From NCBI GenBank assembly GCA_041479765.1, contig JBGOYR010000001.1, positions 1 through 39,963 on the forward strand: a stretch of 39,963 nt of DNA, written 5' to 3'. Positions 21,026 to 26,733 of the stretch are shown piece after piece. Below the pieces are notes generated by a model. That model had not been told where the DNA came from, searched no databases, and saw only the letters and a program-made list of their open reading frames with translations. A program made the translations under genes and the position numbers. This DNA comes from Candidatus Bathyarchaeia archaeon (GTDB lineage Archaea > Thermoproteota > Bathyarchaeia > Bathyarchaeales > Bathycorpusculaceae). Within the stretch, counting starts at the first letter, position 1. Each line of letters starts with the position of its first letter.

Positions 21026-21472
21026 ATGAGCTCACTGAACGACCCCATTACAAAAATTCTGGCCAAAAACAGCCACTTAACCACAACGCAGCTAGAAACA
21101 CTCTTGATCGACATTTTGTCCGACAATATAGCTGGCAAAACGCTGAAATACGACGAAAAGGCCTCCTTGAGACTAACTAAGGCGAAAATAACCCGCGGCG
21201 CCTTTAACAGGACAGCCAGACAGGCAAAAGAGAACGTCATAAAATCCATCTATACAGTATTGCTCCTAGGGTACTTGGGAATCTTCGAAAGCACGGTTCT
21301 GGACCCCTACCTAGAAATAGCGCACAAATTGCGGGACTATCTGGAGGCCTACAAAAGCATCCCGAACACGAGCGACAAACTGGAAGAGCATCTAAAAGTC
21401 ATAGAAATGATAAGAGAAGAGCTTGAAACGAGCCTAGAACAGCTCTCAAATCCATCAGAAGGCCTTTCGTGA
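21026..21472 (+). CDS. Hypothetical protein, possible HTH (Tfx / sigma-70 region-4-like) DNA-binding protein
   Basis: Start is either the ATG at 21026 or the TTG at 20993. LTTTQLETLL...KITRGAFNRTARQAKENVIKSI resembles an HTH followed by a helical tail. The coding call comes from ORF length and ordinary amino-acid composition. Confidence 0.5.
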   Translation: MSSLNDPITKILAKNSHLTTTQLETLLIDILSDNIAGKTLKYDEKASLRLTKAKITRGAFNRTARQAKENVIKSIYTVLLLGYLGIFESTVLDPYLEIAHKLRDYLEAYKSIPNTSDKLEEHLKVIEMIREELETSLEQLSNPSEGLS

Positions 21473-21755
21473 CGTCACAAGTCACATAAGAAGTGATGTC
21501 GTTTCAGGCACTTGTGATGCAATCAAACGAGCAGCCGTAAACAAGTCTGGTTTCTGTGATAGAGCCTAAAATGAGGTGGTCAGGAGGTACTAAATCGCCC
21601 AAGTACCGCATGGTCTTTGGCGTCTTGGCTGTGACGTGTGATGTCATGGAACCATCAACTCATGGTAAGAACCATAAATCTTAAATGCTGTCATGGTAGA
21701 AGTGTGATGTGTGATGCAACACGATAAAATCACACATGATCACATGTGAATCACA
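21470..21755. repeat. Dense array of TCACA/TGTGA cores (mostly TGTGATG / ATCACA), likely an operator array
   Basis: Exact cores lie at 21474, 21481, 21513, 21555, 21630, 21637, 21703, 21710, 21729, 21739, 21745 and 21750, plus an AGTGATG variant at 21492. There is a 10-bp palindrome TCACATGTGA at 21740-21749, a TGACGTCA palindrome at 21470-21477, and TGTCATGG twice (21643, 21687). Confidence 0.8.
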
Positions 21756-21767
21756 GAGAGGGCGAAC

Positions 21768-22481
21768 TTGCCAGAGATCTTGCTTATCCTTGCGGCAGCA
21801 ATACTTGCTGTAACGGCAGGCATCTTGGTCAGGCATCTGCGAGAACTTCGCAAGGCTCAGAAGGCGTACCAAAAAGCTAGAGAAGCGGTTGAAGATATTG
21901 TCTTGAGTTTCAATAGACAGTTCAAACGTGCGGCGGAACGCTTAGAACTCGTTGCGTACAAGGTTGAGGCTAACACTTCGCGTAGTAATAGGGCTGTAAG
22001 TAAAGCGGAAGAGGTTGAGAAGCAACTTCACGCGTTAGGTGAAAGATTTGGCTCTGCCTTAGAGGACAAGAACAAAGTAGCAGCGAGAATTGATGAAGTT
22101 GACCAACGAGTACGTGATATCGTCACATCACAGGAAGCGTTTACTACGAGAATCTTGAGCCTAGAAGAACAGGCGAAGAAGCTTTCAGTGATTCCTGAGC
22201 CAAATGTTGAAGCAGTCATCCCCATAAAGAGAGATAAAGCGTTAGCTCCGTTGACGGGAACTGAGTTAGCGGCACTTGAGATGTTGGCTGCTGAGGGGCC
22301 TAAGACAGCGCCTGAGATTAAGTGGCGGATAAGACTTAGCAGGGAACATACAGCACGGTTGATGAAGAAGCTTTACGAAGAGGGATACTTGGAAAGAGAC
22401 CCGAGCAAGATTCCGTTTAAGTATAGCGTTAAGAAAGAGATGGAGAGACTGCTTAAGAAACCTGAAGGCCAAGCAACGTAG
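21768..22481 (+). CDS. Membrane-anchored coiled-coil protein with C-terminal winged-helix (MarR/TrmB-like) domain
   Basis: 237 aa with a TTG start. It has an N-terminal TM helix (ILLILAAAILAVTAGILV), about 130 aa of heptad-like charged helix, then LTGTELAALEMLAAEGPKTAPEIKWRIRLSREHTARLMKKLYEEGYLER. Confidence 0.6.
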   Translation: MPEILLILAAAILAVTAGILVRHLRELRKAQKAYQKAREAVEDIVLSFNRQFKRAAERLELVAYKVEANTSRSNRAVSKAEEVEKQLHALGERFGSALEDKNKVAARIDEVDQRVRDIVTSQEAFTTRILSLEEQAKKLSVIPEPNVEAVIPIKRDKALAPLTGTELAALEMLAAEGPKTAPEIKWRIRLSREHTARLMKKLYEEGYLERDPSKIPFKYSVKKEMERLLKKPEGQAT

Positions 22482-22643
22482 CCTATTGTGGAGCACTGAC
22501 TCATTGATACTGAGCTATTTCAGGCGCTTCTCCATACTTGAGAGCCCTGTGATTCTGGAAGCCTATAATCCACTTCCCCTCTTCTCTCAACCCCACCCCT
22601 ATTGGCATTTTGCTTGAAAAAGAGCTTGAACGCGATGCTGTTC

Positions 22644-23075
22644 TCAAGACGTCTGTTGTTTGATGATTGCTTGCGAGATTTCTGGAGCCGTTTTGTACTT
22701 AAAGCTATTAAATGCTCCCGACTTCAACACTGTTCCTTTTCCTGTCATCCTTGCAAGGTAGGTTGCAACGGTGCTTAAGCTGATGGGCTCCTTGAACTCC
22801 TGTTCATAGACGGACTGGACCTCTCTTGAAGAGAACCAGACGACCGGAAAGTGTTTCTGAACCACACTACGAACCTTGTCATACTTAGATCGCTCAGCAC
22901 TGGCAACAGTGTCACCAACGGTTGGGCTGTTTCCGCCACTTGGCATACCGCCAAGCAACTCGACCAAATCCAGAAGTCGTAGAGCCTTGTCTCTAGTCAC
23001 TTGTCCCTCGAAGCTTATCGAGTATCGATTCCCCTCAGTATCTGATAGCTCAACGCGAATTTTCTTGGCAGGCAT
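22644..23075 (-). CDS. Small winged-helix DNA-binding protein (uncharacterised)
   Basis: I prefer the ATG at 23075 (MPAKKIRVELSD...); the track start is a GTG at 23120. The C-terminal part FSSREVQSVYEQEFKEPISLSTVATYLARMTGKGTVLKSG looks like a wHTH. Confidence 0.55.
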   Translation of the reverse strand: MPAKKIRVELSDTEGNRYSISFEGQVTRDKALRLLDLVELLGGMPSGGNSPTVGDTVASAERSKYDKVRSVVQKHFPVVWFSSREVQSVYEQEFKEPISLSTVATYLARMTGKGTVLKSGAFNSFKYKTAPEISQAIIKQQTS

Positions 23076-23099
23076 TGACGTTGCGCACCTTAAGGCGGT

Positions 23100-23423
23100 C
23101 TTCACAACTTTACACTTCACATGTTATAGGTATTACGGTGAAAACAGCAGCAGTAAAAAAGGAGAAGGAAGCCAGAACGGCGAAAAGTGGCGAGGATTGA
23201 GGTTTTAATGACATTACAGGCTTCACAGGGTTGCCCAGCCGTATTTGGAAAGAGGAAAAGCCGCAAGTCTGTAGTTCCAATAGAAGCCTAGGGGTGCACA
23301 TTTCACAGAAACGAAACACGAACAGGGCAATAAAGGTAAAAAGAAGGAAGCGAAAGAAACGTTTCGCAGTTAACTTCACAAGGACTTCACAAAGTGTGAA
23401 GGAAAGATGCTGTCGACTTCACA
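23100..23423. repeat. CTTCACA heptamer (iteron-like) array
   Basis: Exact CTTCACA on the + strand occurs at 23100, 23115, 23221, 23374, 23385 and 23417, with an inverted copy TGTGAAG at 23395. This forms the 17-bp palindrome CTTCACA-AAG-TGTGAAG (23385-23401). Variants are TTTCACA at 23301 and TTTCACT at 23462. Confidence 0.8.
23275..23296 (+). other. ORB-like origin recognition box 1
   Basis: TTCCAATAGAAGCCTAGGGGTG: a TTCCA...GAAG dyad-like half followed by a GGGG string. Confidence 0.6.
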
Positions 23424-23541
23424 TACATTAGAGCCTTCGGCGAAATCTGGTCTGAGAAAAATTTCACTAGGAGTTTCCAAAACACACCAAAAAGCAGGCA
23501 AGGGCATGAGAAGTACATACCCATTACCGTTCGAGCACCGG

Positions 23542-23563
23542 CACCCCTTGACTTCCATTGGAA
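23542..23563 (-). other. ORB-like origin recognition box 2 (inverted)
   Basis: The reverse complement is TTCCAATGGAAGTCAAGGGGTG, identical to box 1 at 19 of 22 positions. It contains the palindrome TTCCATTGGAA. Confidence 0.6.
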
Positions 23564-23584
23564 ACTCTTGCGAAGTAGAAAGAC

Positions 23585-23725
23585 TGCTGTTTACTCTGCA
23601 TAAAGATTTCCTGTTTTCATCTAAAAACTTTAACTGATGTATTTTAAATCACGAAATCACTACTTACCGTACAGGGTATATCTCTTCATTAGGAAGAGAT
23701 CCACATTATTTTGCAAACTAATACA
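23585..23725. other. AT-rich stretch, candidate duplex unwinding element
   Basis: By hand count, 23591-23650 has 15 G/C in 60 nt. It lies between inverted ORB box 2 and the half-box and box 3. Confidence 0.5.
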
Positions 23726-23736
23726 GGATCTGCACA

Positions 23737-23751
23737 GGAAAGACAGGGGTG
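23737..23751 (+). other. Half ORB-like element (G-string half only)
   Basis: GGAAAGACAGGGGTG shares the GGAA...AGGGGTG half with boxes 1-3 but lacks the TTCCA arm. Confidence 0.35.
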
Positions 23752-23854
23752 TGTGGGCATGACCATTAACCCCAGTATTTCATATGGTGAATCTGGCTCG
23801 GTTTTACGCTTCTTGTGCGGCTGATTTAGTTTTCTGTACGGCAGGTCTTATCTT

Positions 23855-23874
23855 TTCCACGAGAAGTAGGGGTG
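23855..23874 (+). other. ORB-like origin recognition box 3
   Basis: TTCCACGAGAAGTAGGGGTG has the same architecture as box 1 with a 2-nt shorter spacer. It overlaps the GTG (23872) that opens the orc1/cdc6 ORF. Confidence 0.55.
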
Positions 23875-25152
23875 TTGCTTCTGAAAGAGAGAGTGAGGAC
23901 TTTGGATAACTCAAACATACTCGACGATGTATTCGATAAATGCGTCAGCAACACGAGAATTTTCAAGGATCGAGAAGTGTTGAGGCATGATTATCTGCCC
24001 GGTAGGCTACCTCACCGTGAGGAACAGATCAGAGAACTTGGCGAAACCGTGGCACCGGTTCTGAAGGGGGCGAGAAGCTCTAACATTTTCATATATGGAA
24101 ATACTGGCACGGGGAAGACAGCGGTGGCAAAATATGTCCTGAGCCACTTAGAAGCCAAGGCCAAGGAGTTCAACGCACCAGTGAGGTTCTGTTACGTGAA
24201 TTGCCGCATGGCCGCGTCGGAATACCGCGTCTTTGCGAGTTTGTGCCAAAGCACAGGAATCACTGTCCCGTTCACAGGTCTTTCCGTTGGTGAAGTCTTT
24301 GACAGGTTTCGAACAAGCTTGGACGCCTCTAAAATAATATTCATCATAGTTTTGGATGAGATTGACGCCTTGATCAAAAGCCGTGGTGATGGGCTCCTAT
24401 ATGAATTGACGAGAATCAATGAAACCTTGGCCAGAAGCAAGGTTTCTGTGATCGGCATCTCAAATGACCTTCGCATGAAAGAGTTCCTTGATCCGCGCGT
24501 ATTGAGTTCGCTTAGTGAGGAAGAGCTTGTCTTTAGGCCCTACGATGCTGACGAGCTGAAAAATATCCTTTCCGAGCGGGCGGTCTTGGCATTCTTCGAT
24601 TCAGCTCTATCTGCTGGCGCTTTGGCTCTTTGTGCAGCATTAGCGGCTGCGGAACACGGAGACGCTAGACGAGCCCTGGATCTGTTGCGAGTTGCTGGGG
24701 AAGTTGCGGAGAGAAAGGGTGCAACGGGAGTTGTCGATGAGCATGTTAGGGAGGCCGAAAAACACATTGAGCACAACCGTGTCGTTGAGGGTCTCAAAAA
24801 CCTAACGCTTCATTCGAAGCTTGTGGTATTGAGCGTTTACCACCTCAAACTCGCCAACGTCAACAGTGCAGTGACAGGCGATATCTACGATGTCTACAGC
24901 GAACTGTGCATGGAGCTAGGCGTTATGGCGTTGACGCAACGCCGTTTATGTACATTGGTAAACGAGCTTGACGCTATGGGGTTGTTGAATGCGAAAGTTG
25001 TCAGCATGGGCAGATATGGCCGAACAAAGAAGATCAGATTGGAGTTGCCACGCACGCTCGTCAAGGACGTTTTTGCAGAAGACAACAGGCTTGGTCCCTT
25101 AGTTGCTTACTTGCCGAAATGCCTTGCAAAACACGCACCTAATAGCAGTTGA
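23872..25152 (+). CDS. cdc6: Orc1/Cdc6 replication initiator
   Basis: 426 aa. It has LPHREEQI, Walker A GNTGTGKTA, Walker B IIVLDEID and a C-terminal winged helix. The start is uncertain: GTG 23872, GTG 23893 and TTG 23902 are all in frame. Confidence 0.9.
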   Translation: MLLLKERVRTLDNSNILDDVFDKCVSNTRIFKDREVLRHDYLPGRLPHREEQIRELGETVAPVLKGARSSNIFIYGNTGTGKTAVAKYVLSHLEAKAKEFNAPVRFCYVNCRMAASEYRVFASLCQSTGITVPFTGLSVGEVFDRFRTSLDASKIIFIIVLDEIDALIKSRGDGLLYELTRINETLARSKVSVIGISNDLRMKEFLDPRVLSSLSEEELVFRPYDADELKNILSERAVLAFFDSALSAGALALCAALAAAEHGDARRALDLLRVAGEVAERKGATGVVDEHVREAEKHIEHNRVVEGLKNLTLHSKLVVLSVYHLKLANVNSAVTGDIYDVYSELCMELGVMALTQRRLCTLVNELDAMGLLNAKVVSMGRYGRTKKIRLELPRTLVKDVFAEDNRLGPLVAYLPKCLAKHAPNSS

Positions 25153-25170: not shown

Positions 25171-26733
25171 CTAGGCGAACGATGCGACTGTAACCTCGAA
25201 TGTCTGAAGGTTCACTACTGGAACCTGACCTACCGTTGGCATCAGTCCCATTCTTTGCATGTAAGTTGTCTGTTCCTGCCATCCACCTGAGTTTATGATT
25301 GAAACTCCACGGTAGTTGACATACCCGAGCACGTGAACATGACCGGCGTGGAAGATGTCTGGGGCCCGCTCTATGACTAGAAAATCCCGACTTTCTGGCG
25401 ACAACATTGTCTTCCCACCATACAAGGGTGCCAGATGACGGCCCTGCAGGAGTAACTTCATGGCTTTCTCTGGATGTTGATAAGCCATGCCAGGAACAGT
25501 TGCCATGATGTCATCCAAGCTACGGCCATGGTCCATCAACACTTCCACCCCGTGAATGTTGACGGTGCACGGGTTTCCGAGGGAGTACACGTTTCGCGAT
25601 TCTTGTAGCGTTTCTAGGTACTCTTTGGATAATGCCGGTTGGGGAGCAGCTTTTCGTGTTGCATCATGATTCCCTGGTATGATCACGACTTCTATGTAGT
25701 CTGGGATTTGCTCGATGTATTTTGCTGCGTGCCGGTACTGTTTGTGGATGTCCTTAACCGCAAGTTCTTTCACTTGATTGGGGTATATGCCTATGCCGTC
25801 GACAATGTCACCTGCTACTAAGACGTATTTGACGTGGGCAGCAGTTTCTCTCATTTGCTCATTCCCATACTTACCATTGAGCCAAAGGACGAACCGACTG
25901 AAAGCTTCTCTGTTGAACTTGGCGCTTCCCACATGAAGGTCCGAAGTGAGCACAACATAGACAGGCTCTTGAGCGCGATGGGGAATCTTCTGGGCCACGT
26001 CCGGAAAGATAATGTCTTCAGCGATCAGCAGAGTGCCTCGTGTCTTGACTACGCTTAAGCAGACAACTTGGTCAAGTAGCAGCGCCCGAGCTTTCTTCTT
26101 GACTTCTTCAGGGGCGTTCTGAGGCACAAGAACTGTGATATTTGCCTGCAAATCTTCCACGGTTAAGATGGTTCTCTGCTTGGACTCGCGCTTCTCAGTC
26201 ACCATGCCTATTATCTTGAGTTTCGCGTTCGGCGCAGCTCGTAATGCATCTATAATCGAAGCCGCTGTTTTGACGTCTATGCGTTGCCTCAGGAGCTTCT
26301 CAATTCTCTTGAACCTGTCCCGAAAATACTCTAGATAATCGTCGATCGTGCCGTTCGTGCTGAGCTTGGTAGTGGGGTCTTCGATTACGTTGAGGTTTGG
26401 CTCGATCTCTCTTGCAAATGGGCGAAAGGGGTTCTTGGCTTCGGCTATTTGAGGTTCTGGTGTAGGCGTTTCTTTGGCAGGGTGTTCTGGCGGCTGAATA
26501 ACGATCTCTTTGGACGGTTCTGACTCTGACAGCAATTGTTCAAGGAAGCCCTTGTCGATGAAAAGCGGCTTCTCTTCGAGGTTTCCTATCTTCTGGAGTG
26601 CTTTGTTCATTATTTCACTTGGGTCTTCGCTTGCGGCTGCGACACTTAGGAATTCGAAGGCTTCTCGGTTCAGCTGGTAGCCTGCAGTGATTGTCAAAGC
26701 CACCGCTTTCTGCAGTTTCTCCGTTCCGCTCAT
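25171..26733 (-). CDS. polB: DNA polymerase II (family D) small subunit DP1
   Basis: 520 aa. It has an OB-fold region followed by calcineurin-like phosphoesterase motifs (DLHVGS, GDIVDG, GNHD, GHVH). Confidence 0.9.
   Translation of the reverse strand: MSGTEKLQKAVALTITAGYQLNREAFEFLSVAAASEDPSEIMNKALQKIGNLEEKPLFIDKGFLEQLLSESEPSKEIVIQPPEHPAKETPTPEPQIAEAKNPFRPFAREIEPNLNVIEDPTTKLSTNGTIDDYLEYFRDRFKRIEKLLRQRIDVKTAASIIDALRAAPNAKLKIIGMVTEKRESKQRTILTVEDLQANITVLVPQNAPEEVKKKARALLLDQVVCLSVVKTRGTLLIAEDIIFPDVAQKIPHRAQEPVYVVLTSDLHVGSAKFNREAFSRFVLWLNGKYGNEQMRETAAHVKYVLVAGDIVDGIGIYPNQVKELAVKDIHKQYRHAAKYIEQIPDYIEVVIIPGNHDATRKAAPQPALSKEYLETLQESRNVYSLGNPCTVNIHGVEVLMDHGRSLDDIMATVPGMAYQHPEKAMKLLLQGRHLAPLYGGKTMLSPESRDFLVIERAPDIFHAGHVHVLGYVNYRGVSIINSGGWQEQTTYMQRMGLMPTVGQVPVVNLQTFEVTVASFA

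Follow-up and report, generated by a model that had tools for sequence, protein, structure and literature searches.

Seven copies of the hexamer TTCACA form an array with near-invariant spacing in the predicted replication origin of a Candidatus Bathyarchaeia archaeon, and relatives keep this array more strictly than the origin recognition boxes (ORBs) among which it lies. The window analyzed here is a 39,963-bp stretch of contig JBGOYR010000001.1. The region in question (23076–23871; 796 bp, GC 43%) separates the initiator gene orc1/cdc6 on the plus strand from a gene on the minus strand (22644–23075) that encodes a 143-aa protein with a winged helix-turn-helix (wHTH) domain. Judged from the sequence, the hexamers very likely bind a sequence-specific protein other than Orc1, and this binder is probably the product of the adjacent wHTH gene. 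We infer that the array comprises operator and origin sites of that protein.

The repeats are clustered upstream of orc1

A preliminary description of this DNA had reported an iteron-like array of the heptamer CTTCACA overlapping the origin. All copies were found where it placed them: exact CTTCACA starts at 23100, 23115, 23221, 23374, 23385, and 23417 on the plus strand and at 23395 on the minus strand, the variants TTTCACA and TTTCACT start at 23301 and 23462, and ACTTCACA occurs 4 times in the region. As had been claimed, the clustering exceeds chance. Seven of the 14 copies in the window fall within 324 bp (23100–23423), where about 0.057 copies are expected at the outside rate (Poisson P(≥7) = 3.8e-13), and a simulation that placed 14 sites at random 200,000 times never put 7 of them within 324 bp. 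The total over the window is unremarkable (14 copies vs 8.25 ± 3.0 expected; 6 of 100 shuffles reach 14). The "perfect 17-bp palindrome" described at 23385–23401 consists in fact of 7-bp arms around a non-symmetric AAG spacer, its reverse complement being CTTCACACTTTGTGAAG. In relatives, this dyad keeps only 6-bp arms, with a spacer of 3 to 4 bp; 41 of 58 sequences show no pairing at the outer C/G position.

The hexamer TTCACA is conserved at seven positions

A search with the Orc1 protein as query yielded 80 loci of 72% to 88% protein identity, nearly all labelled as Bathyarchaeia or Bathyarchaeota metagenome-assembled genomes (MAGs). In all, 73 upstream regions were aligned with MAFFT, and 72 loci had sufficient flank for counting gene neighbors. 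Two contigs with an archaeal orc1/polD locus carry bacterial MAG names (L016, Candidatus Acidoferrum sp.; L071, Candidatus Limnocylindrales bacterium), probably through mis-binning.

TTCACA/TGTGAA is the commonest 6-mer in all 73 intergenic regions, with 454 copies or about 6 per region. It occurs at exactly seven aligned positions, each occupied in 54 to 67 of the 73 sequences, whereas every other position is occupied in fewer than 5. These sites, named H1 to H7, lie on the plus strand at 23101–23106 (H1, 66/73 sequences), 23116–23121 (H2, 63/73, adjoining a TATA-like element), 23222–23227 (H3, 62/73), 23302–23307 (H4, 54/73), 23375–23380 (H5, 67/73), and 23386–23391 (H6, 54/73), and on the minus strand at 23395–23400 (H7, 54/73). 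H3 is part of a plus-strand TTACA-GGC-TTCACA element (23214–23227), of which the TTACA (or CTACA) part is conserved as well. H4 begins 5 bp past the G-string of ORB1 and forms a composite element with it. H5, H6, and H7 (23375–23400) combine a direct pair at 11 bp with the inverted repeat TTCACA-N3-TGTGAA. The preliminary copy list had omitted three conserved near-copies, namely TTTACA between H1 and H2 (23109–23114, plus strand), the TTACA preceding H3 (23214–23218), and GGTGAA (23138–23143; TTCACC on the minus strand), an inverted counterpart of H2 on the other side of the TATA-like element. Two copies that it did list are lineage-specific and have no counterpart in relatives: the one at 23462, and the CTTCACA at 23417–23423 (plus strand), which was found in 1 of 73 sequences and lies inside the indel-rich segment 23401–23542.

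Column conservation in the 73-sequence alignment averages 96.6% for the hexamers, 81.6% for the ORBs, and 54% for the remaining intergenic DNA. Only 6 bp are common to the copies, and the hexamer flanks differ between sites; the variants seen at the seven sites are TTTACA, TTAACA, GTCACA, TTCTCA, and TTCACT. A comparison with the origins of relatives, as the preliminary description had suggested, shows the array and its spacing to be conserved, but the conserved unit is the hexamer and the leading C is specific to the window. Likewise, "iteron-like" is only loosely apt for a 6-bp unit with unequal spacings and one inverted copy. In the window, 6 of the 7 conserved sites, and also the extra copy at 23417, have C before the hexamer. 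The preceding base is site-specific and mixed in relatives (G/C/T/A), and the C may reflect a lineage-specific extended specificity or homogenization.

The array has a fixed geometry and is specific to the origin region

The starts of H1 to H7 are 15, 106, 80, 73, 11, and 9 bp apart. With ORB1 (TTCCAATAGAAGCCTAGGGGTG; 23275–23296, plus strand; located by an ORB pattern scan and conserved columns) included, consecutive segments measure 15, 106, 53, 27, 73, and 11 bp, each with a standard deviation (sd) of at most 0.6 bp. Measured from the start of ORB1, H4 lies exactly 27 bp downstream in 73 of 73 sequences and H3 lies 53 bp upstream (52 to 54 bp across all sequences), so that the copies at 23221 and 23301 do flank this box, as stated earlier, and do so at fixed distances. 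The H5–H6 spacing is 11 bp in 97% of the sequences and the H1–H2 spacing is 15 bp (sd 0.6). Neighboring origin segments are looser, with sd values of 15.8 bp for 23401–23542, 3.9 bp for the AT-rich segment, and 8.7 bp for ORB3–ORB4. Because spacing is near-invariant within 23101–23401 and variable in the adjoining segments, we regard the seven hexamers and ORB1 as one rigid platform. The segment 23401–23542 between this platform and ORB2 is an indel-rich, poorly conserved spacer of 67 to 153 bp in relatives (sd 15.8 bp).

Neither of the observations that the preliminary description had named as refuting was made: the array is present at the orthologous origins, and the hexamer is far from equally frequent elsewhere. 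We counted TTCACA in the 80 loci and the window, taking the 900 bp upstream of orc1 as the origin zone and the remaining 651 kb as outside. The density was 6.78/kb in origin zones vs 0.57/kb outside (about 650 kb of loci), where about 0.49/kb is expected by chance. Close pairs (6 to 16 bp apart) numbered 160 inside origin zones and 6 outside, 4 of the latter coming from a single array in L049. That array (L049:2698–2739) consists of five tandem TGTGAA with a 10- to 11-bp period directly 3′ of the wHTH gene; the window has no such array.

The hexamers bracket a TATA-like element in the putative promoter of the wHTH gene

The longest near-invariant stretch of the intergenic alignment, 23097–23145, lies immediately upstream of the wHTH gene. 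Read on the minus strand, it is the conserved block TTCACC-N15-TGTGAA-G-TGTAAA-GT-TGTGAA, with the TATA-like sequence CTATAAC within N15. A Shine-Dalgarno-like GGTG is found 10 nt before the ATG. The bracket TTCAC[CA]-N15/16-TGTGAA around the TATA-like element was present in 63 of 80 wHTH promoters, among them those of the distant homologues in L082 (41% identity), L087 (42%), and L084 (27%). We read 23097–23145 as the putative promoter of the wHTH gene, with CTATAAC as its candidate TATA box. Archaeal repressors such as MDR1, LrpA, and Phr classically bind at sites flanking and following the TATA box. Since the hexamers are placed in this way, autorepression of the wHTH gene is suggested.

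Gene and motif occur together in distant homologues

All 72 loci with sufficient flank have the wHTH gene, which is oriented divergently from orc1 and lies about 800 bp from it. We extended the comparison to contigs encoding homologues at 23% to 46% identity. Their upstream DNA does not align with that of the window, yet TTCACA clusters are found in each. L083 to L088 were used for the cluster count, and contigs L081 to L083 are too short to inform beyond the promoter. The intergenic DNA upstream of these homologues contains 25 TTCACA in 3,614 bp vs 16 in 33,477 bp outside, and the clusters are often tandem pairs 8 to 10 bp apart interleaved with ORBs.

In L085, L086, and L088, orc1 is the divergent neighbor of the wHTH gene. 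In L087 (2683–3500), an origin-like region with ORBs and TTCACA sites lies between the gene for the small subunit of DNA polymerase D (polD-DP1) and the wHTH gene, and orc1 is not there. In L084 (2876–3500), an origin-like region with an ORB and TTCACA sites lies beside the wHTH gene, and both orc1 and DP1 are absent within 3.5 kb; the ORB is abutted by the palindrome TTCACAGTTGTCAACTGTGAA, which sets TGTGAA directly against the ORB G-string. Because L084 and L087 keep hexamers and ORBs without an adjacent orc1, the hexamer/ORB region is linked more tightly to the wHTH gene than to orc1. Inside the origin intergenic regions of L088 (2744–3166) and L086 (3033–3479), genes without a Pfam match were called, of 140 and 148 aa, respectively. 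The former, in an intergenic region of 1,087 bp, may be a real insertion, and the latter, which overlaps ORBs and hexamers, is probably spurious.

The adjacent gene encodes a two-domain winged-helix protein

The open reading frame at 22644–23075 (minus strand) encodes the candidate TTCACA binder. The 143-aa protein comprises an N-terminal β-β-α domain (residues 1–43), a variable flexible linker, and a C-terminal wHTH domain (residues 64–130). Its Pfam match to Penicillinase_R (PF03965) scored 18.7 bits vs a cut-off of 22.6, and its match to CopY_TcrY (TIGR02698) scored 13 to 26 bits vs a cut-off of 122. A profile search against PDB sequences returned CopR (2k4b) only, at E = 0.9. Two AlphaFold2 models had a mean predicted local distance difference test score (pLDDT) of 56 and 67.6, the better one reaching 77 to 87 in the wHTH domain and about 60 in the N-terminal domain. 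Foldseek searches of the PDB with both models gave generic wHTH repressor matches (MecI/BlaI, RosR, and Fur, all at E ≥ 2e-3, the best being MecI at E = 2e-3) and weaker ones to AspA and TubR. These matches, all of them weak, point to a relative of the BlaI/MecI/CopY fold class rather than a demonstrated member. No homology was found to the winged helix of Orc1 (hhalign probability 0.2%) or to the wHTH domain of the neighboring MarR-like protein, and the protein has no similarity to Rep or Orc1.

Residues T105, Y106, and R109 of the recognition helix (LSTxxTYLxR) do not vary even in homologues of 23% identity. Clustered at 90%, the family comprises about 2,900 members, and at 50% it falls into 365 clusters; its members are labelled, where a label is given, as hypothetical or ArsR-like, and the only organisms named are Bathyarchaeota/Bathyarchaeia. 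The gene is transcribed, as contigs from one sediment metatranscriptome cover part of it (22669–22994) and parts of orc1.

A neighboring winged-helix gene has a sister array

Upstream of the next gene, 21768–22481 (plus strand), a non-origin intergenic region carries a related array. Twelve TCACA pentamers (8 ATCACA, 3 GTCACA, and 1 TTCACA) occur in 300 bp (21470–21770), vs about 0.6 expected, with pairs 7 bp and 10 to 11 bp apart. This (A/G)TCACA array was kept in 41 of 41 loci, each with 6 to 10 copies in 300 bp and with ATCACA as the commonest 6-mer; TTCACA, almost never seen there, occurs upstream of the gene in only 5 of the 41 loci. In the distant loci, (A/G)TCACA clusters lie in other nearby intergenic regions, and the region upstream of the wHTH gene contains almost solely TTCACA.

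The product of 21768–22481 has an N-terminal hydrophobic helix resembling a membrane anchor, a coiled coil that spans about 110 aa and gives weak matches of the SMC/MukB/Rad50 type, and a C-terminal wHTH domain of the MarR/TrmB/Lrs14 type. Its gene is a conserved neighbor, convergent with the 143-aa wHTH gene, also in L084, L085, L086, and L088, and its product may be an origin-proximal tether. Two neighboring winged-helix genes, each with its own array and differing at hexamer position 1, fit operator sites of distinct specificity better than initiator sites.

Layout of the predicted origin

The ORBs of this locus have the form TTCCA(A/G)T(A/G)GAA...GGGGTG, and GGGGTG/CACCCC occurs within the region at ORB1 to ORB4 only. 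ORB2 (TTCCAATGGAAGTCAAGGGGTG; 23542–23563, minus strand) marks the left edge of the core origin and ORB4 (TTCCACGAGAAGTAGGGGTG; 23855–23874, plus strand) lies at the orc1 start; both were located, like ORB1, by the ORB scan and conserved columns. ORB3 (23730–23751, plus strand) was placed from conserved columns and the positions of GGGGTG, with its G-string at 23746–23751 and a dyad that is degenerate in the window. Between ORB2 and ORB3, the composition profile (GC 30% to 32% at 23550–23700) delimits an AT-rich segment (23570–23720) that is the candidate DNA-unwinding element (DUE). The orc1/cdc6 gene (23872–25152, plus strand; Pfam Cdc6_C, Cdc6_lid, and AAA domains) and then polD-DP1 (25171–26733, minus strand) follow. 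The order ORB2(−)/AT-rich/ORB3–ORB4(+), orc1, polD-DP1 corresponds to the layout of an archaeal Cdc6-type oriC and is kept in 73 loci. The ORB(−)/DUE/ORB(+) arrangement is the canonical archaeal origin pattern (bioRxiv 10.64898/2026.08.15.744077). The hexamers occupy the left arm around ORB1, outside this core and its presumed unwinding element. The earlier description of the array as overlapping the origin therefore calls for a qualification, since it flanks ORB1 and the ORB(−)/AT-rich/ORB(+) core lies to its right.

A proposed mechanism and its alternatives

We propose that the 143-aa protein probably dimerizes through its N-terminal β-β-α domain and would read TTCACA with the LSTxxTYLxR recognition helix. 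It would bind the inverted pairs TTCACA-N3/4-TGTGAA and TTCACC-N15-TGTGAA as well as direct pairs 7 to 8, 11, and 15 bp apart; TTCACAAAGTGTGAA and the N15 promoter bracket are candidate dimer-bound DNAs. Occupancy of its own promoter would hinder TBP, TFB, and RNA polymerase and thereby cause autorepression. The sites H3 to H7, on both sides of ORB1, would form a rigid 300-bp platform beside the ORB(−)/DUE/ORB(+) core, on which the protein and ORB1-bound Orc1 would assemble into a defined nucleoprotein complex. Such a complex would tune the activity of the origin or make expression of the protein responsive to origin state or occupancy. Any specific effect of the array on replication is proposed with much lower confidence than binding.

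The preliminary description had left open whether the repeats are degenerate mini-ORBs or are bound by another factor, for example the adjacent wHTH protein. Strict synteny, the joint occurrence of gene and motif down to 23% identity, and the bracketing of the TATA-like element favor the second option, with binding itself a prediction. As half- or mini-ORBs, the hexamers would extend the Orc1/Cdc6 footprint leftward from ORB1 and ORB2. Mini-ORBs are known at archaeal origins, including the oriC of Sulfolobus and Pyrococcus, and several features agree with this idea: the sites lie in the orc1-proximal origin region, H4 invariably follows the ORB1 G-string by 5 bp, the TGTGAA of L084 abuts an ORB G-string, and ACTTCACA is one inserted base away from the ACTTCCA arm of ORB2. 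We nevertheless consider it unlikely. No site interconverts with the ORB dyad, TTCCA never appearing at any of them in the 73 orthologues; both the dyad partner and an adjacent G-string are missing at 6 of the 7 sites; and the hexamer columns are more conserved than those of the true ORBs. Moreover, the TATA-like element of the wHTH gene is enclosed by hexamers, and the sister (A/G)TCACA array sits in a non-origin intergenic region. Persistence of the array beside a wHTH gene without adjacent orc1 points the same way but carries little weight, Orc1 being a trans-acting protein.

A different trans-acting factor, either the MarR/TrmB-like product of 21768–22481 or an abundant, sequence-specific nucleoid protein analogous to UBP of Sulfolobus, could also occupy the hexamers, to which the 143-aa protein is linked circumstantially. 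The MarR-like gene is likewise a conserved neighbor, distant loci included, and Sulfolobales origins need a non-initiator element, ucm, whose binder is a nucleoid protein with an unlinked gene (PMC12141716). This explanation seems rather unlikely to us: the MarR-like gene has an array of its own, a sign of a different specificity; across about 650 kb outside origin zones, TTCACA does not exceed background, whereas UBP has hundreds of sites; the ucm sequence ATTATACAAAC differs in sequence, copy number, and location; and autoregulation is the simplest fit for hexamers at the core promoter of the 143-aa gene. Quite improbable is a centromere-like site for partition or tethering, with the wHTH protein as the centromere-binding protein in the manner of TubR-tubC, AspA, or ParB-parS. 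It would account for an origin-proximal cluster of short, rigidly spaced repeats, for the five tandem TGTGAA at 10 to 11 bp 3′ of the gene in L049, for the weak fold matches to AspA and TubR, and for the adjacently encoded, membrane-anchored, coiled-coil DNA-binding protein with its own array. However, the conserved neighborhood encodes no ParA/SegA-type ATPase, the centromere-binding fold matches rank below MecI/BlaI and all are weak, and autoregulation alone explains sites that bracket a promoter. That the repeats have no function, and reflect chance, shared ancestry, or an RNA hairpin, is hardly credible. The window-wide CTTCACA count alone is not significant (6/100 shuffles), and 2 of the 9 copies first listed (23417 and 23462) are lineage-specific, but the cluster has P of about 4e-13, the hexamers far outlast their flanks where Orc1 is only 72% to 88% identical, and the motif recurs in unalignable DNA beside wHTH homologues of 23% to 46% identity. 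A hairpin formed by the H6/H7 dyad was rejected (covariation 0.046 vs a shuffle mean of 0.056; pairs were broken rather than compensated), and an Rfam scan of 22400–24100 at E ≤ 1 gave no match.

Several points weigh against assigning the array to the 143-aa protein as operator and origin sites. Synteny and promoter position link protein and sites circumstantially, and co-variation between recognition helix and motif cannot strengthen the link because both are invariant. Dimerization is a guess, as the AlphaFold2 model is moderate (67.6; about 60 in the N-terminal domain), and all family matches of the protein lie below curated thresholds. At four distant loci (L083, L085, L086, and L088), the promoter-proximal hexamers are oppositely oriented or lack the bracket, and the RNA contigs end inside the wHTH gene, giving no 5′ ends for assigning the TATA box or transcription start site. 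Any role in replication is deduced wholly from position, and 23076–23871 is itself a predicted chromosome replication origin, the prediction being drawn from ORBs, AT-richness, and orc1/polD synteny.

Significance

No description of TTCACA at archaeal origins, of Bathyarchaeota origins with relevance here, or of the 143-aa family was found in the searchable literature. To our knowledge, ucm/UBP is the only characterized auxiliary cis-element of an archaeal origin, apart from ORBs, that has been tied to a protein. Auxiliary origin elements with a dedicated binder are a kind known in bacteria and, since 2025, in Sulfolobales, and the TTCACA array would be another. It is an element more strictly conserved than the ORBs, with a candidate binder encoded next to it, in an archaeal class that is large, ecologically dominant, and almost without cultured members, and it concerns the control of origin activity, or of an origin-linked regulator, in Bathyarchaeia. 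The combination of wHTH gene, TTCACA array, and ORBs also provides a simple signature for finding origins in MAGs, including those in which orc1 is no longer nearby.

A further-reaching possibility, if a doubtful one, is that the 143-aa protein is a second lineage-wide origin-binding protein of Bathyarchaeia that assembles with Orc1 on the platform and gates firing, perhaps with the MarR-like protein and its (A/G)TCACA array positioning or tethering the origin region. If true, it would be an archaeal counterpart of bacterial origin regulators. If the protein were merely an autoregulated transcription factor, the locus would still be a clean case of an operator set of fixed geometry embedded in an origin.

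Comparison with known systems

The array resembles the ORBs and mini-ORBs of Sulfolobus, Pyrococcus, and Aeropyrum in that short repeats lie beside orc1 and are interleaved with ORBs, H4 forming a fixed composite with ORB1. It differs in that the hexamers lack both the TTCCA-TGGAA dyad and the G-string, form a separate class, and also occur in the core promoter of the wHTH gene. Plasmid iterons with their rep gene share with it mostly direct repeats by an origin and an adjacent gene for a winged-helix protein, which here would bind the repeats and regulate its own promoter through the inverted repeat located there. However, iterons are regular, 17 to 22 bp long, and bound by the initiator, whereas the units here are 6 bp, have unequal but fixed spacings, and accompany a canonical Orc1/ORB system; Rep has a WH1-WH2 pair and the 143-aa protein a single wHTH domain.

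In bacteria, origin-embedded sites include the CtrA boxes of Caulobacter Cori, the Spo0A boxes of B. subtilis oriC, and the IHF, Fis, and SeqA sites of E. coli oriC. As in these systems, several short sites, here predicted to bind a protein of the transcription-factor type, lie among initiator boxes; the bacterial regulators also control promoters at or next to the origin, as the 143-aa protein would. The bacterial cases concern another domain of life, DnaA instead of Orc1, and another fold.

Autoregulated promoters are typical of the BlaI/MecI/CopY family, whose members are the nearest relatives of the wHTH domain in sequence and fold. In these repressors, the wHTH domain is N-terminal and the dimerization or sensor domain C-terminal, an order that is reversed in the 143-aa protein, which also has no CxC metal site and occurs in an archaeal, origin-linked context. 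BlaI/MecI/CopY repressors bind xACA-NN-TGTx dyads (TACANNTGTA), with TACA-NN-TGTA operators (PMC7253601). The CACA-N3-TGTG dyad resembles TACA-NN-TGTA, a likeness rather than a test, and the candidate operator TTCACA-N3/4-TGTGAA is similar, not identical, to TACANNTGTA.

In Sulfolobales, ucm is a single-copy 11-bp element inside the DUE, and its binder UBP is a β-rich saddle protein with more than 300 genomic sites that is encoded elsewhere than the origin (Dhanaraju et al. 2025, PMC12141716). Both ucm and the TTCACA array are conserved archaeal origin elements that are neither ORBs nor initiator sites and are presumably read by a separate protein. Here, in contrast, seven 6-bp sites lie outside the DUE around ORB1, the candidate wHTH binder is encoded next to them, and the motif is at background density elsewhere. 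Inside the AT-rich DUE candidate of the window, two further conserved blocks, 23619–23635 and 23665–23690, contain ATCTAAAAACTTTAACT and a CCGTACAGGGTATATCTC-like stretch; neither is an ORB or TTCACA, and they could be a ucm-like element.

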